Shown: positions 26,451 to 62,469 of the stretch, piece after piece | How the letters are laid out: each line of letters begins with the position of its first letter | Numbering within the stretch: position 1 is the stretch's first letter | IMG/VR virus record: IMGVR_UViG_3300028734_000016 | DNA from: a virus | Taxonomy: Duplodnaviria; Heunggongvirae; Uroviricota; Caudoviricetes | Reading direction: 5' to 3' (one strand) | DNA: 64,000 nt | The notes under the pieces: generated by a model | What the model saw: only the letters and a program-made list of their open reading frames with translations | Told to the model about the DNA's origin: nothing | Database searches by the model: none | Program-made: the position numbers and the translations under genes

Positions 26451-27128
26451 TTATAATTTTAATTTTTTGACTCCTTTTGTTGCTGTTTCTTTAATATGAG
26501 TGAAATTTCGAATATCAATACCAACATCAGAATCAGATGGATCAATATAATATGTGTGTGTTCTGAAATTTACTTTATATAACAAATTTGCTGCAGGATA
26601 AACTTGTAATGATGTTCCAATTACAATAAGAATATCTGCTTCTTTTGTTAATTTTTCAGCTTTACCCATATTTGGTACATCTTCACCGAACCAAACAATA
26701 TGTGGTCGTAATGTATCACCATTTTCATCTACACTATCTGTTTGAATATCAAAGTCTTTTGGCCAATCATAAACAGTATTATTGTTAAATGCTCTCATCT
26801 TTGTTAATTGTCCATGGAGATGTAACACATTTGTACTGCCTGCTCTCTCATGTAAATCGTCCACATTTTGCGTCACTATCTGAACATCATATTTCTGTTC
26901 TAATTCAGCAAGAAAGTAATGTGCAGAATTAGGTTCTACTGTATCTAATTGTTTATGCCTTTCATTGTAAAATTTTAATACCAATTTTCTATCTTTCCTC
27001 CAACCATCAATCGTTGCGACGTCTTTAACATCATATTGCTCCCAAAGTCCGTCAGAATCCCTGAAAGTTTGAATTCCGCTTTCTGCACTTATTCCAGCAC
27101 CAGTAAATACTACTATTTTCTTTTTCAT
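26451..27128 (-). CDS. cobB: Sir2-family NAD-dependent deacylase (CobB-like sirtuin)
   Basis: GAGISAESGIQTFRDSDGLW, QNVDDLHERAG, LHGQ; 225 aa. Confidence 0.85.
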   Translation of the reverse strand: MKKKIVVFTGAGISAESGIQTFRDSDGLWEQYDVKDVATIDGWRKDRKLVLKFYNERHKQLDTVEPNSAHYFLAELEQKYDVQIVTQNVDDLHERAGSTNVLHLHGQLTKMRAFNNNTVYDWPKDFDIQTDSVDENGDTLRPHIVWFGEDVPNMGKAEKLTKEADILIVIGTSLQVYPAANLLYKVNFRTHTYYIDPSDSDVGIDIRNFTHIKETATKGVKKLKL

Positions 27129-38224: not shown

Positions 38225-38695
38225 ATGAAAAATATTAAAACATTTGAAAACTGGAAAGATAATATAATAGATGATAAATTATTTACTAGCGGTAAAGCTA
38301 AATATGATCCAACTGTATTTGGTGGAATTATTAAATATAAGTCAGGAAACGTTGAACCATATTATTTTGCTAGAATACAGAAAAAAGGAGGAATTTTTAT
38401 TTGTAAAATTTTCAAGAAAAATAAAGATGGTGAAAGTATAAGATTGAGAAATAAAAAGAAAGATGATTTGAAATCTGCTCATAATTATGTTAGAGAATTT
38501 ATAAATCAAAGGTTGAAAAGAGATGAAGAAAAAGTAGAAACAAATGACACTTTTTTTGAACCTAAAAAAAGACATCATAATATAGACAATGACAAATTAT
38601 TCACTGATGATTATAGTGATGATAAGCCTATTGATCCTTATATACAACCAATAATAGAGCCACAAAAAAGAAAAACTATCATTAGAAGATTTTAA
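38225..38695 (+). CDS. hypothetical basic protein (MKNIKTFENW start type)
   Basis: 156-aa ORF. Confidence 0.55.
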   Translation: MKNIKTFENWKDNIIDDKLFTSGKAKYDPTVFGGIIKYKSGNVEPYYFARIQKKGGIFICKIFKKNKDGESIRLRNKKKDDLKSAHNYVREFINQRLKRDEEKVETNDTFFEPKKRHHNIDNDKLFTDDYSDDKPIDPYIQPIIEPQKRKTIIRRF

Positions 38696-38784
38696 AAAAA
38701 TTCCTTATATAAAAATATAAGGAATTTTTATTTGAACTTTTTACGTAATTGTTAATATAACAATTATAAAAATAATTTTAAAAA

Positions 38785-39300
38785 ATGAAATACTATGTTG
38801 TAAAAGTTGCCAATGGCAAAGAAAAGAAAGTTAAAGAATCAATTGAAACAGAATTGAAAGTTAATCCGATTGAAAATATAATTTCTAATATATTAGTACC
38901 ATCATCAAAAACACAACAGTTAAGAAATGGTAAAAAAATTAATGTAGAAAAAATAAATATACCTGGATATATTTTTATTGAATGTGAATCAATTGATAAT
39001 GCTGAAGGATATATTAAACATATTAGTGGTGTACAAAGTGTATTAAAAAAACCTTTAAGACAATCTGAAGTCGATAGATTATTAGATAAAAAAACTACTG
39101 AGGAAGTTATTGTAAATGAAAATGCATATTACATTAAAGAAAGAGTAAAAATAATTGATGGACCTTTTAATACATTTAAAGGAGTCATTAAAACATTAGA
39201 CAACTCTAAACAAAAATCTAAAATATCTGTTAATGTATTTGACAGAGAAGTAATTTTAGATTTGACATATTCTCAATTCATAAAAGATATTGAACAATAA
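38785..39300 (+). CDS. NusG/Spt5-like transcription factor (NGN + KOW domains)
   Basis: N-terminal YYVVKVANGKEKKVKESIE (NGN-like), C-terminal IIDGPFNTFKGVIKTLD (KOW). Confidence 0.75.
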   Translation: MKYYVVKVANGKEKKVKESIETELKVNPIENIISNILVPSSKTQQLRNGKKINVEKINIPGYIFIECESIDNAEGYIKHISGVQSVLKKPLRQSEVDRLLDKKTTEEVIVNENAYYIKERVKIIDGPFNTFKGVIKTLDNSKQKSKISVNVFDREVILDLTYSQFIKDIEQ

Positions 39301-39450
39301 TATATTTTTAAATTCATGTTAAGCTTAAAACAAAAAACCTTGAAAAAATTTTCAAGGTTTTTTTATTATAATAAGTGTTAAATAATCTTAATTAAGTTTA
39401 AATGATAATATATTTTATTGATATTGTAAATATATACATCGAAAAAAGTC

Positions 39451-39960
39451 ATGAGAAAATTAAAAACATTCAATGAGAATATTGCTGATAATGTCATACA
39501 AAAGGAATACATATCAACAGATGAATTAGAAGAACAATTAGAATCTATAATTAAATTAAACAATTTTGAAGCTTCTATAAAACTTCTCAGAAGTATAAAA
39601 TCAGATTATCCTTATATAAAAACAGAATCACCATATAAAGAGATATATACATCGTTTTTAAAAAAATGGTATGATAAATTTAAAACAGAATTGGATTTAT
39701 ATGAACCAGAAAATACATTTGAAAAAATCGATTATACAGTAGAGAAAGATTATATATCAATCGTAGAATTGAAATCTATGCTGACTGCAGCATTAAAGCC
39801 TTATAATTTTGAAGCATCAACAAAACTATTTAGAACATTAAGAAATAATTATCCATATATAAAAACATCTCAACCATATAAGGCGTTATATGAGGAGTAT
39901 TTGGAAAAATGGAACAATAAATTCAAAGAAGAAATACAAATTTATGTTCTTGAAAAATAG
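39451..39960 (+). CDS. hypothetical protein with internal duplication (YPYIKT...PYK... x2)
   Basis: two ~75-aa repeats in the translation. Confidence 0.55.
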   Translation: MRKLKTFNENIADNVIQKEYISTDELEEQLESIIKLNNFEASIKLLRSIKSDYPYIKTESPYKEIYTSFLKKWYDKFKTELDLYEPENTFEKIDYTVEKDYISIVELKSMLTAALKPYNFEASTKLFRTLRNNYPYIKTSQPYKALYEEYLEKWNNKFKEEIQIYVLEK

Positions 39961-39965
39961 TTAAT

Positions 39966-39998
39966 AAAAAAAAGAGAATCATATGATTCTCTTTTTTT
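39966..39998. terminator. hairpin AAGAGAATCAT-atg-ATTCTCTT + T7
   Basis: read directly. Confidence 0.6.
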
Positions 39999-40004
39999 AA
40001 TATA

Positions 40005-41162
40005 TTATTCGTCTATTTTTGTCTTCACATCAGCAAAGTTTAGATAAATTTTTCTATCATCTTTTATTAATGATATGACTTTAACTTTAACTTCATCTCC
40101 GACATTATATTTTTTCTCATTTCTGTTAATATATGCAGTCTGGATTAATCCAGTCGTTTCATCATCTAATGTGATAAGTGCTCCAAAGTTTTTAATATCT
40201 CTAATTTTACCAGTTAATATTTTACCAACTTTAATACTATCCCACATTGATTCTTTTAAAATTTGAGTAAGAATAATTTTATTATTTTTGATAACTTCTT
40301 TGACATAAAACTCAATTGTCATACCAGGCAAAATTTCATTCCATTTATTTTGCCATTTCTCGCCAATATTAGCTTTGTGAACCATACCTGTTAAACAATT
40401 AGGACCATTTTCAGTAGCTTTGAATTGTACAAAAACTCCAAAAGGTGTTGTTCCTGTAATAATTCCTTGATATGTAATATCATGCTTCAATTTTCGTACT
40501 TCATCTGGAATTAATGATTGTAAATATTTCTTTCTTGATACTACATAAACGCCTTTTTCTTGCTGTAATGTTTCTAGCATTACTTCAAATGTCATACCTA
40601 ATATAGATTCAGAATCTGTTAATTTATTTACATCTGCTAACGTATTAGGCATAAATGCTTCAATTCTAACATTATCCATAAGAATATCCATCATATAACC
40701 TGCTGGTATCATTGATTTAACTTCTGAGATAAGTGGTAATCTTTGTTCATAATATTCTTTCATTTTATTATGAACATTTTGCTTAATGAGTTCTGTGATA
40801 GAACCTTTAATTAGGTAAGGTTTTTCTGAAACAGAAGTAATTAACACATCAATTGAATCACCAACCAATAATTCTGTTATAACTGTATTCAATTTTGGTT
40901 TTTCTACGTAGATAAAATCTTTAAATCCAAAATCAATTAAGATTTCTTTTTGACTGATTGATGATATTGTACCAGTAACAACTTGATTTTCTTTAATCTC
41001 TTTTATACCTGATAAAGACATTTCCATCTTTTCATACATATCTCTATATTCTTGATTCAAATCACCAGAACTTTTTACTTTTCTGATTTTATTATTTGTC
41101 AATTCTGGAAATGGATCAGGTAAACTACCGATATTCACACCTACTATTAATTCTGTATTCAT
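40005..41162 (-). CDS. ribosomal protein S1-like protein with ~4 S1 RNA-binding domains
   Basis: S1-type segments VVTGTISSISQKEILIDFGFKDFIYV, GIITGTTPFGVFVQF, ILTGKIRDIKNFGALITL, VGDEVKVKVISL. Confidence 0.75.
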   Translation of the reverse strand: MNTELIVGVNIGSLPDPFPELTNNKIRKVKSSGDLNQEYRDMYEKMEMSLSGIKEIKENQVVTGTISSISQKEILIDFGFKDFIYVEKPKLNTVITELLVGDSIDVLITSVSEKPYLIKGSITELIKQNVHNKMKEYYEQRLPLISEVKSMIPAGYMMDILMDNVRIEAFMPNTLADVNKLTDSESILGMTFEVMLETLQQEKGVYVVSRKKYLQSLIPDEVRKLKHDITYQGIITGTTPFGVFVQFKATENGPNCLTGMVHKANIGEKWQNKWNEILPGMTIEFYVKEVIKNNKIILTQILKESMWDSIKVGKILTGKIRDIKNFGALITLDDETTGLIQTAYINRNEKKYNVGDEVKVKVISLIKDDRKIYLNFADVKTKIDE

Positions 41163-41207
41163 TTTATTTTTTTTTAAAAGTTAATAATTTATTTTGTTTG
41201 TTTGTTT

Positions 41208-41459
41208 TTATTGTATGATATAATTATTAGAAAGTTTATTTATTTCTAATTGATTTATTTTTTTTGCCCTAATTTTTCTGTTTGCATTTTTATAATATTT
41301 ATCGTCATCTTTATAATACATACGAAAAGTTTTTTGATCTAAATATGGAGAACCTTTTAAATATTTTTCATTAAATTCAATAAGATACAATTCATATGAT
41401 ATATTATCAATTTCTGTTGAATTCTCTATATTCCATTTGCCGTTATTTTTAGCTTTCAT
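41208..41459 (-). CDS. hypothetical small protein
   Basis: 83-aa ORF. Confidence 0.4.
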   Translation of the reverse strand: MKAKNNGKWNIENSTEIDNISYELYLIEFNEKYLKGSPYLDQKTFRMYYKDDDKYYKNANRKIRAKKINQLEINKLSNNYIIQ

Positions 41460-41511
41460 AATATAATTATTATGATAGATTATATCAATTTAAAATAAAA
41501 AGTTTAAAATA

Positions 41512-42159
41512 TTAAAATTTATAATTGTTCTGAGGTCTTTTCATTGGTAAAATTTCATTAGTGTGATCCCAAGTTTCAGATGTGAATATATTCTCTTGTT
41601 TATAATCAGGTGTTTCAGTTATATCCCAATAAACATCCATGAAATTAAATTTGAATTGCACTGTGAAAGTTTGTTCAGATACATCCATTGCCTGATACAT
41701 AAATCTAACTTCTGATAATGATTTAAATAGGGCAGTTCTAAATACTACAGAATATAGAAAATCTCCATCCTTATCCAAAATAAATAAATTAATATGAGGT
41801 AAAAAATGTTTTCTAGTATTGTTATAATATTCATTGAATATTTGTTGCATCATAAAATAATTAGAATGTGAATCAACACTTCTAAATGTAATATCCAAAG
41901 TATTATTATATGTATCATAAATATTTGTTGATGGCTTATACTCAAGTTTCTTACCATATTTGAGTACTTGTTCAGATCCTTCATATGTGATACTTGGAAA
42001 CACAATTTCTTTTATTGTAGAGTTAAGGTATGATATTGGATCTAAATATGGTATCCAGTTTTTATGTAAATATTTACTCATTCTATCGTTAACTTCTTTG
42101 GACACAATATCAGTTGGCAATTGAAAAAGTACCTGATTGTTTTGCGAACTTATTCTCAT
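41512..42159 (-). CDS. hypothetical protein
   Basis: 215-aa ORF. Confidence 0.55.
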   Translation of the reverse strand: MRISSQNNQVLFQLPTDIVSKEVNDRMSKYLHKNWIPYLDPISYLNSTIKEIVFPSITYEGSEQVLKYGKKLEYKPSTNIYDTYNNTLDITFRSVDSHSNYFMMQQIFNEYYNNTRKHFLPHINLFILDKDGDFLYSVVFRTALFKSLSEVRFMYQAMDVSEQTFTVQFKFNFMDVYWDITETPDYKQENIFTSETWDHTNEILPMKRPQNNYKF

Positions 42160-42221
42160 ATTTTTATTTCATTTTTTATATAAATTTAAATATAACTATG
42201 ATTTAATTATATATATTTTAT

Positions 42222-43294
42222 GTGTTGTATATTGTATATATAAAAAAACTAATAGTAAAAATGATAAAAGAAAAAATCATAAAAATAAAAATATCGACAA
42301 AAAAAATAAAAATTTATAATGATCTTGGATATAATGTAAATTTTAATGATATATTAGAAATTCCTATTGAACATTTACAAAAAGGATATCAAATAATGAT
42401 AATAGGTATATGTGATTCTTGTGGAAAAGAGAAAAGTATGATGTATAAAACATATTTATATTGCATTAATAATTCATATTTATATTGTCATGAGAATATA
42501 TATTATTGTAAAAAATGCGCTTCAGAAAAAATTAAAAAAATTATGAAGAAAAAATATGGAGTTGAATATGCAATGAAAAGTGAATTATTTAAAAATAAAG
42601 CTAAAACTACATGGTTAAAAAATTTAGGAGTTGATCATCCATCTAAATCGAAAAAAATAAGATCAAAATTTAATAACACCATGATTGAAAGATATGGATG
42701 CAAAAATGCATTAGAAAATACTAAAATAAAAAATAAAATGTTTTTAAAACAATTTAATGATAATAATGGAATGTACTTTGTACAAACTGAATCATTTAAA
42801 GAGAAAAGTAAAATAACATGTTTAGAAAAATATGATGTTGAAAAATATTTACAATCTGAAGATAAAAAAGAAAAAACTAAATCTACATGTTTAATTAAAT
42901 ACGGAGTAAATCATTCGAGTCAATGTACAGAAATTTTAAATAAAATTTTAAATACTTCTAAAAAGATGATAAAATTTAAAGATACCAATTTATTTTATCA
43001 AGGATCATACGAAAAAAATTTTTAGAATTGTGTGAAAAAATAGGAATATTAAGAAATATAAAAAGAGGGTTTTCTATAAAATACAAATTAAATAATGATA
43101 ATTTAATTTATTTTCCAGATTTTTATTTAGAAAAATTAAATATGATAATTGAAATAAAATCATCATATTGGTATAAATTTCATGAAGATAGGAACATAGA
43201 AAAAGAAAAAGAATGTAAAAAATTGGGATATATTTACATTTTAATTGTAAATAAAGATTATTCTGAATTTAATAAAAAAATATTTAATTTATAA
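42222..43294 (+). pseudogene. zinc-finger + repeat + PD-(D/E)xK-like nuclease gene split into two frames (42222-43025, 43028-43294) at an A7 run; frameshifted or slippage-dependent
   Basis: N-terminal CxxC...CxxC, KYGV...H.S repeats, C-terminal FPDFYLEKLNMIIEIKS; frame shift of +1 next to cgAAAAAAAttttTAG. Confidence 0.5.
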
Positions 43295-43685
43295 TTTGTT
43301 TTATTTTATAAAAATTGTTGCTATAATTTGGAGACTCTTCTTCAAAATTCAGAACATTTTTAATATAATTAGCAAATCTATCAGTTAGAACAGATTCAAT
43401 AAAAATGTTTTTATCTGGATATATTTCTTCAAATTTTTTAAGTATTTTAGTAAATAATCCATTATTTGGTTCTGTCACATCTATACTAGCAAAATCAAAA
43501 AAATCATATACATTACCTTTAAATGATCTTTTAGATCTTCTGATATATATACTTATTTCATCATTAGATATCCAAAGATTTCTTGTGTTTGAATCTAAAA
43601 AATTTGATATTTGATTTAATATATCATCTATATCAGATATATCATATTTTTCAAAAGTTTTCAAATAATTCATAGTATATTTCAT
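43284..43685 (-). CDS. hypothetical protein (MKYTMNYLKTFEKY start type)
   Basis: 133-aa ORF. Confidence 0.5.
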   Translation of the reverse strand: MKYTMNYLKTFEKYDISDIDDILNQISNFLDSNTRNLWISNDEISIYIRRSKRSFKGNVYDFFDFASIDVTEPNNGLFTKILKKFEEIYPDKNIFIESVLTDRFANYIKNVLNFEEESPNYSNNFYKIKQIIN

Positions 43686-43688
43686 ATT

Positions 43689-43937
43689 TTATATAGTTGT
43701 TGTTATGCTAGTAGAAGTAATTCCTTCATTTCCATATCTTTTTAATGGTAGAACTTCCAGTTTTAATATATTTGGGTTATTTAACAATGATCTATATTCA
43801 GCTTCAGAAATTTCAGATGCCATTATGACGTTATCCCTAGTAAACACTATAGTACCTCCACTTGATATAATTTCATTTGTTATGTCATCATTATATGTTA
43901 ATCCTTTAAATAGTGAACTTTGTGTTGATGTTGCCAT
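43689..43937 (-). CDS. small protein sharing an N-terminal domain with 43954-45228
   Basis: GGTIVFTRDNVIMASEISEAEY...NPNILKLEVLPLKRYG vs GGTILYSYDNMIIASEITDSFY...NPNIEYIDSLPLKKYG. Confidence 0.5.
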   Translation of the reverse strand: MATSTQSSLFKGLTYNDDITNEIISSGGTIVFTRDNVIMASEISEAEYRSLLNNPNILKLEVLPLKRYGNEGITSTSITTTI

Positions 43938-43953
43938 TTGTTAAGTTGTTATT

Positions 43954-45228
43954 TTATATATTAAAATTCGGAATTGTAATTGTTAAATCTTTAGTTGAAT
44001 CACCAAATGCATTAATGGCTTTTATTTTTATATTTGATATTCCAGGATAATTAGGTGTACCACTTATTATATTACCCAGAAGATTTAATCCGCTAGGCAA
44101 TTTACCTATTATTTTATATGTTGAATTTATATCTGTTGATTCTATTGTGTAATTAAAAGGAAAATAATAACTACCTAAAACAGAACCAGAACTAGTAATA
44201 ATAGGAATGTAGCCAACACCAATAGATAACTGTTTAGAATCAACCCCTGTTATTCCAGATGCTATTAGATTCACAATCGTACTACCTGTTTCAGAACAAA
44301 TTCCATTAATTACTCCAGTTAAATTATTTATACTTAATCCTGATGGTAACGGAGTTGCATCATATGAACTAGGATAACCATTTGATGATATTTGATATGT
44401 AATAGTTGTTCCAAATTTGCTATTAATTACTAAATTTGTATTAGTTATTTTAACATAATCTATGACAGTTAAAACTAAATTTTTTGATGCTGATCCGTAA
44501 TAATTTATTGCACTATATCTAAAATTATATACTCCACTTACAGATGATGTTACTCCACTTATTCTGTTCAAATTTATTCCTACTGTTCCAGTATAATTAC
44601 CTGGAGATATGAGTTCATATTTTATAGGTGAAGTTCCAGTTGCAGTTATAAGATAATCAAATTTACTATTTGTTTCTACACTTAAATCGAAATATTCATT
44701 TGTGATGATAGGATGTATTATTGTTCTAGTTGGAATATTAGAATTTCCTGATACTCCATCTTGTAGTGTAGTGGTAAGTGTATTTAATGTATTTATAGAA
44801 TTCGTGATATCATTGGTATAACCAGTTACATTTATACCAGTTGTGAATACGTTATTATATTTACTACCTGAGCCAGTGATAGTTGATCCGGAATTTGTAA
44901 TCGGGTTAGAACTCAAATTAGAACTATTACCTGTATCAATTTTAATTTGGTTTATTAAGTCATAATTTATATCACCATATTTTTTTAATGGCAAAGAATC
45001 TATATACTCAATATTAGGATTTTTTATTAATTCACTATAGAATGAATCTGTAATTTCAGATGCTATTATCATATTATCATATGAATATAAAATAGTACCT
45101 CCTTGTAAATTTATAATACTCTCAATTGATGAATTATAACTTAATGTTGTACCAGATGACATATTTAATACATTAAGTAAATCAACTTTACCATTTAATA
45201 TTGTTGTAGTTGTAGTTGTAGTTATCAT
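43954..45228 (-). CDS. Ig-like (He_PIG-type) repeat surface/adhesin- or fibre-like protein
   Basis: three LP-x-GL-x(5)-TG-x-I-x-G repeats; S/T/N-rich. Confidence 0.7.
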   Translation of the reverse strand: MITTTTTTTILNGKVDLLNVLNMSSGTTLSYNSSIESIINLQGGTILYSYDNMIIASEITDSFYSELIKNPNIEYIDSLPLKKYGDINYDLINQIKIDTGNSSNLSSNPITNSGSTITGSGSKYNNVFTTGINVTGYTNDITNSINTLNTLTTTLQDGVSGNSNIPTRTIIHPIITNEYFDLSVETNSKFDYLITATGTSPIKYELISPGNYTGTVGINLNRISGVTSSVSGVYNFRYSAINYYGSASKNLVLTVIDYVKITNTNLVINSKFGTTITYQISSNGYPSSYDATPLPSGLSINNLTGVINGICSETGSTIVNLIASGITGVDSKQLSIGVGYIPIITSSGSVLGSYYFPFNYTIESTDINSTYKIIGKLPSGLNLLGNIISGTPNYPGISNIKIKAINAFGDSTKDLTITIPNFNI

Positions 45229-45239
45229 TATTAATTATT

Positions 45240-47126
45240 TTAATTTGATGTAGAAGATGTATCTTTATATTTTGTATAAATAATAACTGTTCTGCCTGCC
45301 ATAGGCCATATAGATTCTGATGATGTAGTAGTGTTAGTAGATGAACTACCTGATGATATAGGAACAGAGCTACTTGAATCAGAAATATAATTTGTATTAT
45401 TATCAACAAATGTTATATCTTCAAATAGTGTAAATGTACCAGAATATAATAATGTTCTTACTTTATCTATTCCAATGACTTGATTAGTGCCATTTGATGA
45501 TTGATTGTTTGATACCAATGTCAAATAAAAATTAGTAAATCCTTTATTGTAAATTGATTTTAATACTGTTAGATCATTTTCTATAATTTTAAAATTCACT
45601 ATACCATTTACATAATCATTTGATGCCTCTTTATATATAGATTTTTCTATGGTTTCTGAATCAGATTTAAATATCAATACCAATTCAGAATTATTTAATA
45701 TAGTAGATAAATCATATATAACTAATTGGTTAGTAGTACCATTTGTTGACTGAAGAGATGCTAATCTAAATTGAATAATATTATCAAATGGTGTGATTAC
45801 GATATTTAATAATCCCATAGTTTTATAATCATTATTAGTCAATGCTGTTGATGAACTATTAGATGAACTATTAACTATTAATTTTCCAACTTCTATTAAT
45901 TGAGGAGAATTAACCTTCACAATTTCAGTTGTTATATTACCAGATAAGTAGTCTTTTCCCAAAACAATTTCATCTGGTTTTGCATTATATATTTTAAGTT
46001 TGTTTAAATTTTGTATATTTAAACTGATTAATTTTTTACCATATTTTTGAATATTGTTATCTAAACCTAATGTAGATGTTCTTTCAATTGTGCTCATATC
46101 TACTAAATCAATAACTCTCATAACAACTCTAATTGCAGCAGTTGTATTTGAGAAAGTTAAAATTGGTCTATATAATATAGTTTTTGTGAAATCATCATTT
46201 GATCCATTACCTGACACAACAACAGTTTGCATATTTGTTTGAATATTTTCTTCTAATAGATAAATATCATATTCAATACGCATTCTACGACCTTTATTTT
46301 CCATTTCTCTTATGAAATTATCCAAATTTTGACTTGAATTACCATATGTTCCTTTAATTTCAAAGAAATCTCCTTCCAATGATTCATTTATATTTACAGC
46401 TAATGTATTGTAATCTGCACTTTTTGAAAATGATGTATTATAAGATTCTGATGAATAAAAATATGTTGTACCAAGAACAGTTTCTTTTGTAACTAAATAT
46501 TTAAAATCCACAAAAATTGGTGATGTTTGACTTAATCCTACACCAAGAGTAAAATTATCATTGATTGTATTATTTGAGACTATATTTTCTTTTAATGAAG
46601 TTATTCTTTGATTAGAAACATAATCAATTGACGGTATTTGAAATTCATAATATTTACCCCATTCTTGTTCATCATACAAAAATGGAATAGATAATGTCAT
46701 ACCTGAAGTTGATTTTGTGGTTGAATCAAAAAATATGTTAGCTAATTCGTACACTTTTTCATTATAATAATCATATGTGTAAATTTTAACATATAATCCA
46801 ACATATCCATTTAAAACAAAATTATAATTAGTTGGTAAATATAACTTAACTTTATCATATGGAATAGGAGCAGTATTATAATCTTGATATTGTAAAAAAT
46901 TATACTTTGATACGTCAATCTGAGTATATTTTCTTAAAACAGTATCTAATAAAAATAAGTTATTATTTGTATTGTTATTATTTGAAGTAGATATAAAACT
47001 TCTTTTTTTATTTTCATTAAGATTTGTTATAACTTTGTAATTTTCTGTCACGTTATTTTCATTATCAAATGTCCATTCCATTAAGACATTTGGATTAATC
47101 TTTATTATTTTCTTAGTACTGGACAT
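45240..47126 (-). CDS. large S/T/N-rich structural-type protein, function unknown
   Basis: 628-aa ORF directly upstream of the Ig-like protein. Confidence 0.65.
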   Translation of the reverse strand: MSSTKKIIKINPNVLMEWTFDNENNVTENYKVITNLNENKKRSFISTSNNNNTNNNLFLLDTVLRKYTQIDVSKYNFLQYQDYNTAPIPYDKVKLYLPTNYNFVLNGYVGLYVKIYTYDYYNEKVYELANIFFDSTTKSTSGMTLSIPFLYDEQEWGKYYEFQIPSIDYVSNQRITSLKENIVSNNTINDNFTLGVGLSQTSPIFVDFKYLVTKETVLGTTYFYSSESYNTSFSKSADYNTLAVNINESLEGDFFEIKGTYGNSSQNLDNFIREMENKGRRMRIEYDIYLLEENIQTNMQTVVVSGNGSNDDFTKTILYRPILTFSNTTAAIRVVMRVIDLVDMSTIERTSTLGLDNNIQKYGKKLISLNIQNLNKLKIYNAKPDEIVLGKDYLSGNITTEIVKVNSPQLIEVGKLIVNSSSNSSSTALTNNDYKTMGLLNIVITPFDNIIQFRLASLQSTNGTTNQLVIYDLSTILNNSELVLIFKSDSETIEKSIYKEASNDYVNGIVNFKIIENDLTVLKSIYNKGFTNFYLTLVSNNQSSNGTNQVIGIDKVRTLLYSGTFTLFEDITFVDNNTNYISDSSSSVPISSGSSSTNTTTSSESIWPMAGRTVIIYTKYKDTSSTSN

Positions 47127-47206
47127 ATTGTCGTTATTGTATTTTTTTCTATATATAAAAAAATAAACTTTGTAATATAAAAATAATAAAAATAATAAAA
47201 ATTTTT

Positions 47207-47932
47207 ATGTCTATATTCAATACATTATTAAATAACTCACCAGGTGAACTTTCACATACTTCAACTTCACCTACATCAGATAAATACAGCAAAAAAGAAG
47301 TGTCTTTCTCAGAATTTGAAACACCAATAGATGGAACTACAGCAACAGCGACATGTCAATTAAGTTCATTAATTACATCAAGTGCATCAATTGGATTATC
47401 TAATTCATATATGTATGGATCAATTGACACGTCTAGTGTTAGTTCTAATCCATATTATTCAAATATTTATAATGGAAATTATAATGGAAATTATATTGGA
47501 AGTTTTACATCTAATATGTGGAAAACATCAGAAGAATTGAATCAATTGGAATCAATGAGTTATATTGTTGATTTTGAATTAGATGATGGATCACTATCTA
47601 AATCATTATGTGAAATAACTGATAACTCTTTTATATTTGATTGTAAAATGGATGGAAATAGAATTCAGCCATATGAAAAATTAATGGAATTGATAAATGA
47701 TAAAATTAAAATGTCTGTTAAAATAGAAATTTCGGATGTATTGACATTACACTATACAAATTTACAATTCACAAAAATTGAAAACAATTTCAAATTCAAA
47801 AACGGTTATTGCAGTCTAAGCAAATTGAAAGTTAATTTTAAGTTTGAACAAGTATTATATGAAAATGAAAAACTGTCGATAAAAGAAAAAAGAGCAGATA
47901 AACTAAATAACATATTAAAAAACAATGAGTAA
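47207..47932 (+). CDS. hypothetical protein
   Basis: 241-aa ORF. Confidence 0.55.
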   Translation: MSIFNTLLNNSPGELSHTSTSPTSDKYSKKEVSFSEFETPIDGTTATATCQLSSLITSSASIGLSNSYMYGSIDTSSVSSNPYYSNIYNGNYNGNYIGSFTSNMWKTSEELNQLESMSYIVDFELDDGSLSKSLCEITDNSFIFDCKMDGNRIQPYEKLMELINDKIKMSVKIEISDVLTLHYTNLQFTKIENNFKFKNGYCSLSKLKVNFKFEQVLYENEKLSIKEKRADKLNNILKNNE

Positions 47933-48539
47933 TACAAATAAAACAATTGAGGAATTTGATAATGTAATAAGTATTTGTTCAAATATTTATATGAAGAAAA
48001 TGAAAGATTATGGCGCATCTTGGAGAATTTTAAGACAAAAATCTGTCACAGATCAAATATTCATAAAAGCGAGACGAATTAGAAGTATAGAAACTAAATT
48101 AGATAAAAAAATTGATGAAGGAATAAATTCTGAGCTAATAGCAATTGTGAATTATGGTATAATGGGGCTAATTCAATTAGAACTTGGATATTCTGATTCA
48201 GATGATTTATCATATGATAAAGGTATTGAATTATATACTAAATATATACAGAATGCTAAAGAATTGATGCTAAATAAAAATCATGATTATGATGAGGCTT
48301 GGAGAACAATGAGAATGGAATCATACACAGATTTAATTTTAATGAAGATTTATAGAACTAAACAAATTGAAGATAATGATGGAAAAACTACAATTTCTGA
48401 AGGTATAGATGCAAATTATTTTGATATGATTAATTATGCTATATTCGGATTAATTAAGCTTAACGAACATGATGAAATACTAAAAAATAAAATAACAAAA
48501 ACTACTGAAAGACCTAAAATTAGAATAATACCAGAATGA
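47925..48539 (+). CDS. hypothetical protein with two homologous halves (SWRILRQKSVTDQIFIKARRIRSIE / AWRTMRMESYTDLILMKIYRTKQIE)
   Basis: internal duplication in the translation. Confidence 0.55.
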   Translation: MSNTNKTIEEFDNVISICSNIYMKKMKDYGASWRILRQKSVTDQIFIKARRIRSIETKLDKKIDEGINSELIAIVNYGIMGLIQLELGYSDSDDLSYDKGIELYTKYIQNAKELMLNKNHDYDEAWRTMRMESYTDLILMKIYRTKQIEDNDGKTTISEGIDANYFDMINYAIFGLIKLNEHDEILKNKITKTTERPKIRIIPE

Positions 48540-48621: not shown

Positions 48622-49725
48622 TTAATTTTTAAGCATGTGAGCCAATTCAATAGTCATTGCTATACTCCAACTTAGAGGATTATTATCATTTGGAGTTTTT
48701 GTTCCATGATAATACAATTCGGGTATTTCATAGTCAATAGATTCATTTACAATTTTTTCATAAAAATATTTTGCTTTCTCTTTTTCCCCTAATTGACAAT
48801 ATATTAAGCCTAAATAGCTTAGTCCGAATAACCAAGTTGCTTCGCCATTTGTGTTATAATATTTATCATCTAAATATCTATATACTCCATTCTCATCTAA
48901 TAAATTATCCTCTATATTTTTTAATATAGTTTTTGACATTTCTACAGTTAATAAATTAAATGGATAGATAAGAAATAATTGAGCTAAATCATATTTTCGT
49001 GTTGGTGTTTCATTTGGTAATATACCATTCAATGTTTCAATACCATTTTCTATTAAATGTTCAGGAATATTGACGTCAATTTTATCACACATTTTAATTG
49101 ATGTTAATCCAGCAACAATCACTCCAATAGTAGATGCTCTTGGCGCCTCTTTACCTTCTTCCCATGCACCAGATTCTGGTACAGTATGATAATCAATAGC
49201 ATCTAATAATTTAATCACAGTTGATATAATATCGATGTCAGTTTTATCTCTAATTATATTTAACCCATTTTTTTCACCAATAGCTATTCCATATAGAAAA
49301 TATCCTATTTGATCAATTTGAATATGATTCCAACCAGAATGAATTTCTGTTAAATCTATATTTATTCTTGGATTTGGAAATTCCCAATCAAAATCTATTT
49401 TTTTCTTATTGATTAGAGATGAAAATTTTCCATATTGTGTTTCAATATTTTTATAATAATCTAACCAGGTTTGATATGTTTGAATATATTTTTCTGTATC
49501 ATTCCACAATTCTGGAAATGAACAAAAAAAATTATCTCTCAACCAACTATAACTATAATCGTTAGAAACTGATGCTTTATAAAAACCATTAGGTAATCTT
49601 AACTTATGTAAAACCTCAAATAAATTTTTGATATCTAAATCTAATAATGTATTGTAAAAGTCATTATATTTTTTACTGGTTTTAAATTTTCTTTGAAAAT
49701 ATATTCTATAATGTTCATCTGACAT
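48622..49725 (-). CDS. glycoside hydrolase family 15-like (glucoamylase-type) protein
   Basis: SWLRDNFF and PESGAWEEG motifs resembling GH15 W-x-RD and catalytic WEE segments. Confidence 0.5.
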   Translation of the reverse strand: MSDEHYRIYFQRKFKTSKKYNDFYNTLLDLDIKNLFEVLHKLRLPNGFYKASVSNDYSYSWLRDNFFCSFPELWNDTEKYIQTYQTWLDYYKNIETQYGKFSSLINKKKIDFDWEFPNPRINIDLTEIHSGWNHIQIDQIGYFLYGIAIGEKNGLNIIRDKTDIDIISTVIKLLDAIDYHTVPESGAWEEGKEAPRASTIGVIVAGLTSIKMCDKIDVNIPEHLIENGIETLNGILPNETPTRKYDLAQLFLIYPFNLLTVEMSKTILKNIEDNLLDENGVYRYLDDKYYNTNGEATWLFGLSYLGLIYCQLGEKEKAKYFYEKIVNESIDYEIPELYYHGTKTPNDNNPLSWSIAMTIELAHMLKN

Positions 49726-50153: not shown

Positions 50154-52682
50154 TTAAACTTTAGTATTTTCTGTCAATATGTTACCATTCTTAATTTCGT
50201 TATTTGAAATTTTAAAGATTTTAACTGAAGAACTTTCTTTATCATATATCAATGATAATGTATCACCAACTGATATTTCTTGATCAATAATAGCATCAGT
50301 AAGTTTATCTTCAATATTACTCTGAATGACTCTCTTTAATGGTCTTGCACCATAATTTTCATCATAACCATTTTCAAATAAATAATCTTTAAGTGATTGA
50401 GATATAATTACATCATATCCTTTTTCTTTAAGATTTGAAATTAAAGATTTACATTCAACATCAACAATGCTACAAATGTTTTCTTTACTCAAAGAATTGA
50501 AATTGATAACTTCATCTACACGATTTAAAAATTCAGGACTAAAAACTTTTTCTAATTCTTTTTTAAGAACTGAATTTTTAGAGTCTTGATTATTTTTATT
50601 AAGTCCAAATCCAATACCAGTACCAAAATCTTTCAATTTTCGTGAACCAGCATTTGTTGTCATAACAATAATAGTATTTTTAAAATCGACTTTACGTCCA
50701 TTACTATCTGTCAATACACCATCATCCAACACTTGAAGAAGGATATTTTGAACATCAGGGTGAGCTTTTTCAATTTCATCAAGAAGAATAATAGAATAAG
50801 GCTTACGTCTAACTGCTTCAGTTAATTTACCACCATCTTCATATCCAACATATCCAGGAGGTGCTCCTACTAATCTAGATACTGAGAATTTTTCCATAAA
50901 TTCACTCATATCAATTCTAATCATAGCATCTTCAGAACCAAATAACTCCTTTGCCATAATTTTAGCAAGATATGTTTTACCTACTCCAGTAGGTCCTGAG
51001 AAAATAAATGTGCCAACTGGTTTATCATGACTATTTATACCAACTCTTGATCTCTTAACTGATTGAACTATTTTGTCAACTGCTTCATCTTGTCCAATAA
51101 CAATAGTTTTAACTTTATTAGCCATATATTTAAGCTTATTGTTTTCATCAACAGAAACATTATCTACAGGTATTTTTGTTATAAGAGCAACAACTTCAGC
51201 TATATCCTGTTGTGTTACCAAAGGACGATTATCAGAATGTGATTGACTCCATGTTTCTTTTTCAGTTTCAAGTTCAGATTTCCATTGTTTTTCATTATCT
51301 CTATGTTCAGCAGCAATTTCATATTTCTGATTTGAAATACAATCAAGTTTTTCCACAATAGATATTTTTATTTTTTTGCTGAGTTCAACAATTTTTACAG
51401 GAATAGCACTTGTACCATTAACGTGAACCATAGCGCCAGCCTCATCAAGAACATCAATTGCCTTATCTGGAAAGAATTTTTCTGATATATATTTACCAGA
51501 CAAATTAACACAAGCTTCTAATGCATCATCAGTATATGTAACTTTGTGATGATCTTCATATTGTTTTTTTATATTTTTCAGAATTTCTAAAGTTTCTGAC
51601 TTACTGGTTGCCTCAACAACAACTTTCTGAAATCTACGTTCTAATGCAGCATCTTTTTCTACATACTTACGATATTCTTCAAGTGTAGTAGCACCAATAC
51701 ATCTAAATGTACCTCTTGCTAATCCTGGTTTCAACATATTGGAAGCATCGAGTGAACCTTGGGCTGAGCCAGCACCTATAATAGTATGAATTTCATCAAT
51801 AAAAAGAATAATGTCAGGATTTTCTTCCATTTCTTTGACAATACCTCTTAATCTTTGTTCAAATTCACCACGATATTTAGTTCCTGCTACTAAAGAACCC
51901 ATATCAAGAGTAATAATTTTCTTATCCTGTAAATTTTCAGGAACAAGTCCATCTACGATTAACTGAGCCAATCCTTCTACAATAGCAGATTTTCCTACTC
52001 CAGGTTCTCCTACCAAAACAGGATTGTTTTTCTTACGTCTTGATAAAATCTGTGAGATTCTTTTAATTTCATCTGCACGTCCTACTACTGGATCAAGTTT
52101 ACCTTCTTTTGCAAGATTGGTCAGATTTGTACCAAATTGATCAATCAATTTAGTTTTTGATTTGCTCTTTCCTTTTACTTCTTGTTCTTGTTCTTCGTCC
52201 ATGTTACTATTTTCTAATTCATCATTAATATTAAGTTCATCTTCTTCATTTTTTAATTTGTTTTTTAAACTTCTTAAAATTTCAGGTGATTTATTAAATA
52301 AATCTGAAACAAGGTTATTATTATTATCCAATATTGCATAAAAAACATGCTCAATACAAACTTCATCTGAGTCCATTGATTTGGCAAAAACCACAGATTC
52401 TTTTAGAATTTTTTCAGTTTCTAATTCTAATGGAATAGAAGCATTCTTTCTAAGAGAATTCAAACCATTCTGTTTTTGTAAATCTTTAGACCAATCACGA
52501 ATTGTTGATTTGATAGCATTAATATTGAGATTTAAATCTCTCATTATATTAGATGCTTCAGAATATTCCTCATCTATCATTGCTAAGAATAAATGCTCAG
52601 GCCTGATTGTGTTAGATTGAATAATAATTGCAATTCCCTTACTTAGTTTAATAACTTCTTCTACTTCTTTCGAGTAATTCAT
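50154..52682 (-). CDS. clpC: ClpA/ClpC-type AAA+ unfoldase (two Clp_N repeats, D1 and D2 ATPase modules, short middle region, IGF-type ClpP-docking loop)
   Basis: [15 protein letters not shown] + ILFIDEIH (D1); [15 protein letters not shown] + [14 protein letters not shown] (D2); GTGIGFGL loop. Confidence 0.9.
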
Positions 52683-54010: not shown

Positions 54011-55651
54011 ATGAGTTTAATTTTAAGACAACAAAAAGGAGAAAGATTAACTATAACCGAAATGGACGGTAATTTTTCATATTTAGAATCTCTATCTGGC
54101 ATTTCTCACACATCAGGAACAAATGGAAGTTCAGGAACAAATGGAAGTTCAGGAACAGATGGAACATCAGGAACAGATGGAACATCAGGTACAAATGGAA
54201 GTTCAGGAACAAATGGAAGTTCAGGAACAAATGGATTAAGTGGAGATAAATATACTACATTTTCGAATAATACATTAGAAATATCAACAGGAGGTACAAT
54301 ATCATTTTTTGTTGAGCCTAATTTATCATTATCTACAGGACAAGATATTATAATAACACATGACTCATCAAATTTAATGATAAATTATATATTATCATAT
54401 AATAAAATAACAGGTGAAATATTTTCAAATATTACTTCATCTATTGGTAGCGGAACATATAATTTTTGGAATGTATCATTAAATGGTGCTCCTGGTCCTT
54501 CAGGAATAGATGGAACATCAGGAATAGATGGAACATCAGGAATTTCAGGAACAGATGGAACATCGGGAAGTTCAGGAACAGATGGAACATCAGGAATAGA
54601 TGGAACATCAGGAATAGATGGAACATCAGGAATAGATGGAACATCAGGAATAGATGGAACATCAGGAACGAATGGAACATCAGGAAGTTCAGGAACAGAT
54701 GGAACATCAGGAACGAATGGAACGTCAGGAACAAATGGAACGTCAGGAACAAATGGAACATCAGGAACAAATGGAACATCAGGAAGTTCAGGCACAAATG
54801 GAACATCAGGAACGAATGGAACGTCAGGAACAAATGGAACGTCAGGAACAAATGGAACATCAGGAAGTTCAGGCACAAATGGAACATCAGGAACGAATGG
54901 AACGTCAGGAAGTTCAGGAACCAATGGAACATCAGGAAGTTCAGGAACCAATGGAACATCAGGAAGTTCAGGAACAGTATCATTAAATGGTACAACGAAT
55001 TATGGACTACTTACATTAAATGTATCATCTCCAAATGTAAATGTTGAAAGTGGATTAACATATCATAATTCATTATTAAATTTAAATGGTAATTTAATAT
55101 TACCAAAGTTGTCAGGAACAGGTATAATGATAGACAATACAACACCGACATTTGGATATAAAGATTTAATCGGTCAGATAATACCAAGGGTTGGTGGATC
55201 TACTGCTCCTTCATTATCACCGTTAAGAGGAACTAATATACTTAATTATACATTTCAAGTTAATGATAAGATAGATAATATTACATATCATATGCCACAT
55301 GATTATTTACCAAACTCTGATATATATTTACACACACATTGGAGTCATAATGGTACAGCAATTTCAGGAACATTTGCATTAAACTATTATGTAAATTACA
55401 GTAAAGGTTATAACCAATCAGGACAAACATTCAATTCTGAATTGACTATACCACAAACAATTTCTGTAACAGGAACAACAGATCGTCCAAGATGGGGACA
55501 TTTTATAGATGAAATCAAATTAAGTAATATAGGTGGAGATTCAACTCATTTAAATACATCATTATTAGAAATTGATGGAATTATTGAAATTGCATTAAAT
55601 GTAAATAGTATACCTACTATAACAGGGGTACAACAACTAATCCATTTATAA
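54011..55651 (+). CDS. collagen-like repeat protein (two G-T-S-G-x-x-G blocks) with a non-repetitive C-terminal domain; fibre/fibril candidate
   Basis: 546-aa ORF; preceded by (AAAAAACATT)x3. Confidence 0.8.
   Translation: MSLILRQQKGERLTITEMDGNFSYLESLSGISHTSGTNGSSGTNGSSGTDGTSGTDGTSGTNGSSGTNGSSGTNGLSGDKYTTFSNNTLEISTGGTISFFVEPNLSLSTGQDIIITHDSSNLMINYILSYNKITGEIFSNITSSIGSGTYNFWNVSLNGAPGPSGIDGTSGIDGTSGISGTDGTSGSSGTDGTSGIDGTSGIDGTSGIDGTSGIDGTSGTNGTSGSSGTDGTSGTNGTSGTNGTSGTNGTSGTNGTSGSSGTNGTSGTNGTSGTNGTSGTNGTSGSSGTNGTSGTNGTSGSSGTNGTSGSSGTNGTSGSSGTVSLNGTTNYGLLTLNVSSPNVNVESGLTYHNSLLNLNGNLILPKLSGTGIMIDNTTPTFGYKDLIGQIIPRVGGSTAPSLSPLRGTNILNYTFQVNDKIDNITYHMPHDYLPNSDIYLHTHWSHNGTAISGTFALNYYVNYSKGYNQSGQTFNSELTIPQTISVTGTTDRPRWGHFIDEIKLSNIGGDSTHLNTSLLEIDGIIEIALNVNSIPTITGVQQLIHL
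54470..54970 (+). repeat. coding 9-nt G-x-x collagen-like repeat block (second block; first at ~54100-54240)
   Basis: antisense ORFs 54385-55047 are repeat artefacts. Confidence 0.8.
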
Positions 55652-56517: not shown

Positions 56518-59500
56518 TTAATAAACTAATTCTAAGTGAGAAACTAATTCTTCGTCTTTATCAACTTCAATTGATGCATCAAAATTTATACTATGCACCT
56601 GTTCAATAATTACAATTTTATTTACTTTATTTTTCAACTCATCAATAAATTCTAAAAATTGCTGAACAGATTTTGTTTTTTTACCATCAATTAATTTACC
56701 CATAATTTCATCCAATACAATAAACGTAGATTTTGATTTGACATTTATTTGTCGTAATGCTATCTTCAATGCAAGAGCACAAAATGTTCTTTCTTTTCCA
56801 GAACTTTCAATTGCATTTTGACTGGAATCTAGCCTATCATCTGCACTAAGCCTTAAATTTAAATTATCATCAAAAAATAATGTAAAATTAACATTTATTA
56901 ATAATTCATTCAATTCTTTATTAATTAAATGAATAGACTTTTTCAATAAAAAAGTAGGTAATCCATCACGACTAATACATTTTTGATACTCCTTTAATAA
57001 CTCATCTTTTTTCTTTTGTTTTAAATATTTTTTTATCTTAGTTGAAATTATAAAAATATCATTTTCTTTGAGTATAATATTTTTTTCCATTTCTATATTT
57101 ATTTGTGATAAATTTTTTATTTGTTCTTTAACGACTTTAATATTATTATCCACATCATCTATTGATAATTGAATAATTTTATTTTCATCTATTTTAACTT
57201 TATATTCTTGATATTTTTCTATTTCTAATTTTAGTTCTTTTATTTTAAAATTAAAATTTTCGATTGATAAAATAATATTATCTCTATTTGACATTTTTCT
57301 GTTTCTTAACTCAAAATTATCTTTCTTAGTTTCCTCAATTGAAATATCATCATCTATACCTTCAACATTAAAATTTTTCAATTCAGACTCAATATTTTTT
57401 ATTACAATTGATGTATCTAATTTGCCTTTTTCTATGTTTTTTATTAGTTCTTTCCCTTTCTCAATATTTTCATTTAATGTTTCAGATTCATCAAATATGT
57501 TATTCTCAATTTTTTCTATTAATTTATTTAAATCTAAATTGTCTTGAGTCAACTTCTTACTGCTACCAATTTCTTTCAATTTAGATAATATATCATCAGG
57601 GTATTCTCCTTGAATTAACCTTTTTTTCATGTCTTCCAAATTAAGAATATTTGTATTACATTCAATAGATTCATTTTTTAAATCTTTATACTTTAATATA
57701 CAATCTTTAATTATCAAAGAATTTGGTTCTTTTTTAATTTCAAGACTTTTAATTTTATCTTCTAAATGAGCTAAGTGTTCTGAATATTTTGGATCATTTT
57801 TATCATAATCTCTACCACAGCTAGGACAAGATTTTGAATTTTTGAATGTTTCTATTTCTTTATCTAATTCCTCATTTGAATTTTTAGCGTTAACTCCATC
57901 TTTTTGTAATAATTTTATATTAGATGATAATTCTTTTAAATTTAATTCTAATTCTTGAATTTCTGATGTTATTTTTTTTATTTCATCCTTTATGATATTA
58001 GATTTATTATTTTTAATAACTTCAATTTGTAAATCATTTGCATTTATTTTTGATGATATTTTTCTAATTTCAGATTGTTTTAATTCATCAATTTTAATAT
58101 TAACTTTATCTATTTTATTATCAGATTCTAATAATGAAGTTTTCAAATTTGAAATTTCATCTTTTCGTTCAGAAATTTTCAAGTTCGTTTGCTTCAATTT
58201 AATTTTATATTCATCAAGTTTAGATGAATCGAATTCAGTAGGTAATTTATCAATGTCTCTATCTAAAATTGTGCTTTGAATTTTAGATTCTTCAATTTTA
58301 GATTCATAATTGTTGATGGTATTCAAATTTAAATCTTCATTAAAAGTTAACATTGATAAATCAATATTATTTAATTTTTTATTTAAATTATCTCTATCTG
58401 TATTATAATCAGATAATTCTTTTTCATGCTTCTCAATATCAGAATTATTAGTATCAATAATATCTTTAATATCAATAATTTCAGTATTCAATTCTTTCAC
58501 ACGAGATTCAGAATCTTGAATATTTACTATTAATTTTTCTTCTACTAATTCTTTTTTATATTCTTTAAATTCATTCAATTTAATTTCAAAAATATCATAA
58601 CCAGCATCTCTGATGATGTTATCCATAAATACACTTCTATTTTCTGATAATAAATCATTTAAATTATCAGCATTAGTGAATGACAATCTAATAAAATCTT
58701 TCAAATCTCCTAAAATAGAGTCCAATTCTTTTTGAGTCTTAGCTTTAATTTCATCTGTTAATTTATTTTCTTCACAAATATTCTCGCTTTTATAAAAATC
58801 CAATGATGTAGGACAGCTTGTTAATGCCGTGTGATTCTTATTCCAAACTCTTTCTGTCTTTCTCTGAATAACGAATTTATTACCATTTGAATTAATAATT
58901 GCACCACCATTAACATAATCTAAATCTCTTTTGTTATTTATATATCTTGAATCTCCAAATTTTTCAGGACTTAATGTTGTCGTAGTCTTACCATAAAGAA
59001 TATAAGTAAGTGCATCTAAAATAGTTGTTTTACCTTCCTGATTTTCTCCATGAATTTGTACAATTCCATTAATATCAGCCCAATCTATAACATTATCATC
59101 TCCATAAGATTTAAAATTACTAAACCAGAATTTATCAATACTCCATTCAGTATTTTTTAAGCATTCTACCAATTGAACTCTACTATTTATTATATCATCA
59201 ATTTTAAGAATAGATTCAATATCATCTTTTTTGTATTTTTGCTCTTCTAAATATTCATTAAATATTTCTTTCTGTGTTTCAGTATCAGTCAAATCAATTG
59301 ATTCTGATAGCATTTTTGATGATAATATATCTGTGTATAAATAAACTTTTTCAAAAATAACTTTAGTTGTGCTAAATTTATTTTTAATATAATCTCTTAT
59401 TTTCTTTTCATTAACAGTATTTATAATTGATGAATATTCTTTCCAATGAACTTTAATTTCAGTATCTGTTCCAATTTTATCAGCAGACAAATTTAAATTG

Positions 59501-62468: not shown

Positions 62469-62469
62469 T

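Follow-up and report, generated by a model that had tools for sequence, protein, structure and literature searches.

Do huge phages whose genes lack Shine-Dalgarno (SD) sequences encode a ribosomal protein S1 of their own, and how might such a protein act in the infected cell? The question is raised by a gene in a 64,000-nucleotide stretch of viral DNA (Caudoviricetes; IMG/VR record IMGVR_UViG_3300028734_000016), referred to here as the window. The gene is an open reading frame (ORF) at positions 40005..41162 on the minus strand that begins with ATG and encodes a protein of 385 residues (43.9 kDa, pI 6.1); its assignment as a bS1-like coding sequence draws on the ORF list, Pfam and the RpsA models. 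An initial annotation, made from the DNA letters and their ORFs, had placed a four-domain ribosomal protein S1-like protein here, and the ORF list returns the same coordinates and length and supplies the strand, which that annotation did not give. Judged by sequence comparison, the protein is a very divergent homolog of domains 1–4 (D1–D4) of the bacterial ribosomal protein bS1 that lacks D5–D6 and is not an equivalog by the NCBI standard.

This identity is carried by the way in which the whole protein aligns to RpsA. All full-length RpsA models in NCBIfam align collinearly from the first domain, with scores of up to 115.8 bits: NF004952 pairs residues 39–375 of the phage protein with model positions 26–372 of 580, TIGR00717 pairs residues 52–380 with positions 12–346 of 516, and a third RpsA model pairs residues 42–382 with positions 2–353 of 391. 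The Firmicutes-type model PRK06676 scored 90.8 bits, lower than the 115.8 bits of the six-domain models. In the PDB, the top sequence match was residues 11–350 of Escherichia coli bS1, i.e., D1–D4 (E=3e-19 with the single sequence and 5e-28 with the family profile), and the top Foldseek match was again E. coli bS1, as bound to the 30S subunit (9gut_B, E=2e-22). The Pfam S1 family (PF00575) matched at E=5.6e-22, three stretches of the protein scoring above threshold, and searches of Pfam and NCBIfam with the 385-residue protein found no domains besides S1, i.e., no catalytic or KH/NusA core.

The S1 domain occurs in several RNA-associated proteins, and each domain was therefore typed separately, by scoring one profile per phage domain (n=4) against the six domains of E. 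coli bS1 only. The D1 profile selected E. coli D1 (21.7 bits; next best 9.1) and the D2 profile selected E. coli D2 (20.0 bits; next best 5.0), and the profiles of D3 and D4 fit the RNA-binding class D3–D6 with no clear preference. The same logic was used for typing S1 domains by Salah et al. (2009), where short forms of bS1 were found to stem from loss of C-terminal domains. The initial annotation had proposed rpsA domains 1 and 2 as the relevant comparison and S1 domains of the PNPase, RNase E or NusA kind as the competing identity. The first two phage domains thus pick out the rpsA domains, whereas models of PNPase and RNase R match the last domain only, at 27–40 bits as against about 101–116 bits for bS1; S1 domains of RNase E and NusA were absent among the significant matches in the NCBIfam and PDB profile searches. 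The description as ribosomal protein S1-like is therefore upheld. The word ‘paralog’, also used in that annotation, is loose, since identity to any cellular bS1 examined reaches no more than about 20–31% and the scores fall below the equivalog cut-offs. No match to the S1 protein was found in PHROGs. A scan of GTDB genome contigs yielded no close cellular donor, its three loci all having phage synteny, and among 50%-identity representatives the bacterial-length S1 proteins surface only at about E=1e-24 to 1e-34, the one that is named being from Verrucomicrobiota.

An AlphaFold2 model, built on a 40-sequence family alignment (mean predicted local distance difference test score, pLDDT, 75.6), places four OB folds at residues 61–121, 144–209, 230–299 and 315–376, preceded by a helix at residues 37–51. 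The four S1 domains of the initial annotation are thus seen in the predicted structure, though Pfam scores three. Domain 1 (40800..40982, minus strand) is an acidic OB fold of the bS1-D1 type according to the model, the profile and its pI of 4.8. Domain 2 (40536..40733, minus strand), assigned to the bS1-D2 type by profile, conservation and its pI of 4.9, is better conserved than any other domain of the family, with a mean majority fraction of 0.81 over the 40 sequences, and its segment AFMPNTLADV aligns with AFLPGSLVDV of E. coli. Domain 3 (40266..40475, minus strand; pI 8.8) is a basic, canonical RNA-binding S1 domain in the model and matches the E. coli D3–D6 class; F241, G242 and F244 are invariant and H262 is present in 38 of the 40 sequences, which gives the canonical F-G-x-F...H RNA-binding signature. 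Domain 4 (40035..40220, minus strand; pI 9.2), also basic and recognized in both the model and Pfam, is the strongest Pfam match, with F326 in 39 of the 40 sequences and G327, L329 and Q341 invariant. The charge is thus split along the protein, D1 and D2 being acidic and D3 and D4 basic.

If the protein acts as a bS1, its front half would be expected to carry the features by which bS1 is held on the ribosome. E. coli S1 binds the ribosomal protein uS2 mainly via F5 and F9 of a short N-terminal helix, the two aromatics stacking on F32 of uS2, and salt bridges made by D39 and K43 of D1 add to the contact; the helix found between strands 3 and 4 in S1 domains is absent from E. coli D1, which is a peculiarity of that domain (Byrgazov et al., 2015). 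Counterparts of each of these features can be proposed in the phage family. The helix at residues 37–51 (41010..41054, minus strand; assigned by DSSP on the AlphaFold2 model) carries Y39 in 35 and Y43 in 33 of the 40 family sequences, at i, i+4 spacing, and would be a candidate counterpart of the F5/F9 helix. The D1 loop IDFGFKD matches the E. coli loop VDAGLKS that contains D39 and K43, with D77 kept in 36 of 40 sequences and K81 in all 40. In the model of D1, strand 3 (residues 83–87) and strand 4 (residues 103–112) are joined by a 15-residue loop that contains no helix.

Ahead of the helix lies an N-terminal extension, residues 1–36 (41055..41162, minus strand), that is predicted to be disordered, holds a conserved motif and is absent from E. 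coli bS1. The motif is near-invariant at L5, G8, N10, I11, L14, P15, D16 and F18, in a stretch where pLDDT is below 50 and residues 1–31 are of low confidence. No homology of residues 1–36 was detectable to the N-termini of bS1 from E. coli, Mycobacterium smegmatis or 9zcd_A, a Bacteroidota-type bS1, and the LPDPF motif does not recur in the other plausible proteins of the window. The idea that this segment is the N-terminal extension of Bacteroidota bS1 was considered and is not supported, as the family profile aligns to 9zcd_A from about residue 51 onward; D1 itself scores equally against the bS1 of 9zcd_A, M. smegmatis and E. coli. The extension may serve as an extra ribosome anchor or as the place where a phage partner binds.

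The initial annotation had also described the element as lacking SD sequences, and the gene starts bear this out. Among the 93 starts of non-overlapping genes in the window, GGAG occurs upstream of one, and GGA is found upstream of 2% of starts as against 12% of random positions. From positions –20 to –4 of these 93 starts, G accounts for 0–10% (no more than 6% except at a single position) and A for 45–73%, so that the leaders are G-poor and A-rich. The leader of the S1 gene itself (41163..41207, minus strand), the 45 nucleotides between the stop of an upstream 83-residue ORF and the S1 start, is likewise A-rich and free of an SD motif. In 12 related loci that carry S1, one of them with an S1 only 35% identical, SD-like motifs were found at 0–9% of starts, and in two loci of cultured jumbo phages that infect Bacteroidota they were found at 0%; an E. 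coli control locus of three genes had an SD-like motif at two of its three starts. Stop-codon recoding was also considered and is not indicated, since genetic code 11 leaves 87% of the window coding.

The gene is real and under strong purifying selection, as its ratio of nonsynonymous to synonymous substitution rates is 0.04–0.19 (Nei-Gojobori; against six relatives). Because the window has a G+C content of 23% and is rich in stop codons, and given these rates, the gene is not a chance ORF. The N-terminus MxxELIEGVNIGxLPDPFP is kept in the homologs of the 40-sequence alignment, which confirms the annotated ATG as the start. The 3′ end is likewise natural, since homolog lengths of 372–403 residues bracket the 385 residues seen here and a hairpin separates the stop codon from the next gene, which is convergent. 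This hairpin (39967..39998), a perfect palindrome with a 14-bp stem flanked by A7 and T7, stands between the S1 gene and the convergent ORF at 39451–39960. It is the sole terminator-like site in the interval 38600–47400, where shuffled sequence averages 1.2. Its resemblance to a bidirectional intrinsic terminator, which would make S1 the last gene of its transcription unit, is suggestive only. A scan for sigma-70 promoters was uninformative in this AT-rich DNA (98 sites against 91.7 expected).

With respect to its carrier, the window is part of a huge phage related to the 635–735 kb ‘Mahaphage’ genomes and to the Lak phages. Its G+C content is about 23% throughout (range 20–30%). When the S1 protein was used in tblastn, high-coverage matches came from huge uncultured phage genomes only (462–735 kb): LR756501 and LR756503 (735 kb) matched at 46.5% identity over 94% of its length, and LR745206, LR756502, LR756504 and LR756500 matched as well, the others at 32–52% identity; in Prevotella Lak phages of 540–552 kb the match covered part of the length. 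An identical S1 protein is encoded on contigs of up to 711,471 bp. The largest genomes together with the Lak phages make up the ‘Mahaphage’ clade, for which Bacteroidetes hosts are predicted (Al-Shayeb et al., 2020; PMC7162821), and the host of the present phage is probably a member of Bacteroidota. This host range is supported by a tail-tube-like neighbor of the S1 gene, a 215-residue protein described below, whose weak homologs include proteins of cultured jumbo phages infecting Chryseobacterium and Tenacibaculum, and of Lak phages. The S1 family is widespread: a word-indexed search gave more than 120 clusters at 50–100% identity, nearly all of 370–403 residues, the exceptions being a few fragments and one longer fusion, and an exhaustive search of 50%-identity representatives gave 113 proteins below E=1e-30, mostly of 340–420 residues, with some shorter fragments. 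One member of 35% identity is found on a 181-kb contig with phage-like content, and BFVD includes viral proteins of similar size that are named ‘30S ribosomal protein S1’.

Upstream of S1 on the minus strand is a co-directional block of genes comprising a 628-residue ORF (45240–47126), a 424-residue ORF (43954–45228), a 133-residue ORF (43284–43685), the tail-tube-like 215-residue ORF (41512–42159) and, directly upstream of S1, the 83-residue ORF (41208–41459). The order 628-residue, often 424-residue, 215-residue, S1, all on one strand, was seen again in almost every one of 29 IMG/VR loci. S1 is also linked to this tail block in LR756501 and LR756504; the linkage is lost in LR756502 and LR745206 and is therefore not obligatory. 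The 215-residue protein has no Pfam or PHROG match, and its model (pLDDT 66) shows a tail-tube/Hcp-like fold: Foldseek matched it to a chain of the T4 portal-neck-tail structure (9mkb_AC, E=1.8e-6), then to tube proteins of the Photorhabdus virulence cassette (PVC) and antifeeding prophage (AFP), and to Hcp of the type VI secretion system. The 628- and 424-residue proteins had no match in Pfam, PHROG or the PDB, including a search of the PDB with a 16-sequence profile of the 628-residue protein, which by its position could be a divergent tail sheath. The S1 gene follows the tail genes with a gap of 45 nucleotides, too short for an obvious promoter of its own, and late expression is therefore possible.

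The tail-gene block (41208..47126) is interrupted by a DUF7487, homing-endonuclease-like gene on the plus strand (42222–43025). In the closest IMG/VR relatives (L005, L006 and L009) this gene is missing and its flanking genes abut, and it is present on a contig with an identical S1 (L034); its appearance is that of a mobile element inserted recently. Beyond the hairpin, on the plus strand, a NusG-like transcription factor gene (38785–39300) matches TIGR00922 at E=1.5e-31, below the cut-off; it is LoaP-like, and its PHROG annotation is ‘transcription antiterminator’. This gene lies convergent and downstream of S1 in relatives whose S1 is at least 64% identical, and because the arrangement is kept only at that level we gave it little weight as a functional clue.

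Elsewhere, the window encodes a T4 gp9/10-like protein, collagen-repeat proteins, endonucleases of the LAGLIDADG, GIY-YIG and DUF7487 types, an NAD-dependent DNA ligase and a thymidine kinase. Four tRNA-Leu genes (CAA, TAG, TAA and TAA) occupy 6973–8521 on the minus strand, with a LAGLIDADG/helix-turn-helix endonuclease-like ORF (7048–8295) sitting between the first and the remaining three. A ClpP protease (14636–15391, minus strand; E=1.7e-54) and an 842-residue ClpB/ClpA-like double-AAA+ ATPase (50154–52682, minus strand) suggest a phage-borne system for protein quality control or degradation. A SIR2-family protein (26451–27128, minus strand; PF02146, E=1.9e-46) could serve in NAD metabolism or in counter-defense. 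In the 1251-residue protein encoded at 56518–60273 on the minus strand, an N-terminal calcineurin-like phosphoesterase is followed by P-loop signatures of the SMC/Rad50 type, so that it looks like a fused Mre11/SbcD-Rad50/SbcC nuclease.

The sole region of raised G+C content (0.30) is the gene for a collagen-triple-helix-repeat protein (54011–55651, plus strand; E=1.2e-31), which is overlapped by long spurious ORFs in other frames on both strands, as is typical of Gly-X-Y repeats. Runs of small genes (about 120–205 residues) are found on the plus strand at 3779–6976, where neighbors overlap by four bases, and at 61636–63820; each run holds a pair of paralogs (5285–5650 and 6060–6434, E=2e-12; 61636–62055 and 62470–62907, E=5e-21). 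Further genes encode a DUF1599 ‘nucleotide modification associated’ protein (47925–48539, plus strand; E=1.4e-56), a glycosyl hydrolase family 15 domain protein (48622–49725, minus strand), an RNase H-like protein (PF04308; 34323–34874, plus strand) and an SPFH/Band-7 protein (11211–12254, minus strand).

What might the protein do? We consider it probable, with due reserve, that it is a minimal phage bS1 that docks on the host 30S subunit and captures phage mRNAs. In such a mechanism, the helix with Y39 and Y43 and the acidic D1–D2 would attach to uS2 on the 30S subunit of the host, where host bS1 sits, while the basic D3–D4 would bind the single-stranded, A/U-rich, SD-less leaders of the phage and hold them unfolded. 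The protein would then hand phage mRNAs to the mRNA channel, supplementing or displacing host bS1 during infection, and initiation on phage messages would be sustained or biased as the outcome. A protein of D1–D4 is plausibly competent for this, since D1–D3 of E. coli S1 keep most of its functions on structured mRNAs (Duval, 2013). Docking on the ribosome is favored over the other proposed functions because candidate uS2-contact features are conserved; the binding to the ribosome, the preference for phage mRNA and the timing of expression are predicted properties of the protein. The initial annotation had likewise raised the redirection of ribosomes to the element's transcripts, and beside it a role as an RNA chaperone or as a cofactor in replication or packaging, all of them putative functions.

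Several observations weigh against ribosome docking and have to be set beside it. The helix at residues 37–51 lies outside the region aligned by HMMER, which starts at residues 48–51, and where its tyrosines sit and how they are spaced are the only grounds for equating them with F5 and F9. A partner other than uS2 might be hinted at by the conserved 36-residue extension, for which bS1 offers no equivalent. When host S1 is part of Qbeta replicase, this D1–D2 surface is engaged by a viral protein instead of the ribosome (Byrgazov et al., 2015). The divergence of the protein is also considerable, its whole-protein score of 115.8 bits being well under the NCBIfam equivalog cut-offs for RpsA (368–918 bits) and its identity to the cellular bS1 examined about 20–31%. 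Moreover, the score against the Bacteroidota-type bS1 9zcd_A (54 bits) does not exceed that against E. coli bS1 (72 bits), and for this reason any adaptation to the uS2 of the presumed host is hypothetical. Finally, the binding of any family member to the ribosome is a prediction from sequence and structural model.

The Qbeta precedent leads directly to an explanation in which the protein works away from the ribosome as an RNA chaperone or cofactor: D1–D2 and the N-terminal motif would bind a phage enzyme, be it an RNA polymerase, a nuclease or another, while D3–D4 hold RNA. Host S1 does bind the Qbeta beta-subunit through D1–D2 residues that also serve for uS2 (Byrgazov et al., 2015), and T4 RegB, which S1 activates, and lambda Beta, like Qbeta, use host S1 off the ribosome; the extension without a bS1 counterpart and the phage NusG-like gene that adjoins S1 in closer relatives would also suit such a role. 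Yet the candidate residues for contact with uS2 are kept, and D2 is the most conserved domain even though the other genes of the family diverge strongly, as would suit a partner in the host that evolves slowly, for instance the ribosome. Nor is any partner gene consistently linked, the NusG adjacency being lost below about 64% identity and the tail linkage in some Mahaphage genomes. We regard this off-ribosome role as somewhat unlikely. A protein that retains the candidate docking features and lacks D5–D6 might instead be a competitive decoy for host shut-off, filling the bS1 site on uS2 while performing poorly on host mRNAs. However, D1–D3 suffice in E. coli for most of what S1 does on structured mRNAs (Duval, 2013) and many bacteria use a four-domain bS1 (Salah et al., 2009), so that the loss of D5–D6 alone predicts no defect. 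A pure blocker, moreover, would not need the RNA-binding signatures of D3–D4, which are under purifying selection, and the decoy explanation appears very unlikely.

The explanation that departs furthest from a phage bS1 is that the gene encodes a generic S1-domain protein, of the PNPase, RNase E, NusA, RNase R or Tex type, or that it is a cellular rpsA brought in by mis-assembly or contamination. The S1 domain is widespread, Pfam alone cannot separate such proteins, and three homologs are on contigs binned as bacterial metagenome-assembled genomes. Those contigs share the phage synteny, however, and the gene stands among phage genes (the tail-tube-like gene, homing endonucleases and a T4 gp9/10-like gene); the occurrence of the identical protein on contigs as long as 711 kb, and of the best matches in huge-phage genomes, speaks for the same origin. 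Since, in addition, D1 and D2 are specific to bS1 and the PNPase and RNase R models reach only the last domain, we hold this explanation to be at odds with the data and extremely unlikely. Within the preferred interpretation, i.e., docking of a phage bS1 on the host 30S subunit, a bolder version can be drawn from the extension and the gene order. The motif GxNIGxLPDPFP might add a uS2 anchor that out-competes host bS1, or might recruit a phage factor, and S1, if co-transcribed with contractile-tail genes as it appears to be, might be made late or even be packaged in the virion, giving phage-specialized ribosomes tuned to the A-rich, SD-less mRNAs of the structural genes. We think this unlikely as it stands; if it were true, a ribosomal protein would have been made into a viral factor dedicated to initiation.

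The association of phage S1 proteins with missing SD sequences has precedent. Al-Shayeb et al. (2020; PMC7162821) reported ‘possible rpS1s’ in huge phages that rarely have identifiable SD sites, proposed the same link and noted that true rpS1 proteins were hard to confirm; homologs of the present protein are annotated as ‘RNA binding S1 domain protein’ in their supplementary files. Mizuno et al. (2019) left S1-domain proteins aside over the same ambiguity. The ‘possible rpS1’ proteins of huge phages (LR756500–LR756504, LR745206 and Lak) belong to the same family, and share with the present case the genome type (huge, AT-rich and SD-less), the predicted host phylum (Bacteroidetes) and the hypothesis. 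Domain identity was not resolved in the 2020 study, whereas for this branch the present analysis documents how specifically D1 and D2 match, which candidate residues would contact uS2, the extension and the synteny.

Compared to E. coli bS1 (6h4n_y and 9gut_B), the phage protein has an N-terminal helix, D1–D2 of the protein-binding type and the RNA-binding domains in the same order, shares the acidic front half and the basic RNA-binding domains, and carries candidate counterparts of the D39/K43 pair and of the aromatic i/i+4 pair; it differs in having four domains instead of six, D5–D6 being absent, in its additional 36-residue extension and in an identity of about 20%. The natural four-domain bS1 of Actinobacteria and Clostridia (Salah et al., 2009) has, as here, lost two C-terminal domains and kept D1–D2 recognizable, but no specific affinity of the phage protein to these forms was found, and PRK06676 scores lower. 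Among virus-borne proteins, phage bS21 (Mizuno et al., 2019; Chen et al., 2022) is likewise a small-subunit protein of initiation, though a different protein; in the phages that carry it, the gene belongs to a conserved region of structural genes and is expressed in connection with late replication. Incorporation into ribosomes has been reported for viral ribosomal proteins, S1 not among them (PMC13157829). The bS1 of cyanophage PhiMa05 (2026) has likewise been discussed as a replacement for the host protein, but seems to have been acquired recently from a Vampirovibrio-like host; the present family, in contrast, is deeply diverged from all cellular bS1. The idea that connects phage S1 to missing SD sequences has thus been known since 2020, and the value of the present analysis is confirmation and sharper detail rather than discovery. 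What is added is that this branch is, by its sequence, a genuine D1–D4 bS1 homolog in which candidate contacts to uS2 are conserved, that the family has an N-terminal motif of its own, and that the gene often stands last in a tail block.

Ribosomal proteins have long been regarded as a hallmark of cells. That phages carry copies of bS21 and bS1, both related to initiation, suggests that the host ribosome itself is remodeled by large phages. The family described here, of about 385 residues and four domains, provides a defined test case for whether a phage bS1 takes its place on the ribosome, and whether it favors leaders of the A-rich, SD-less kind found in Bacteroidota and in their phages.

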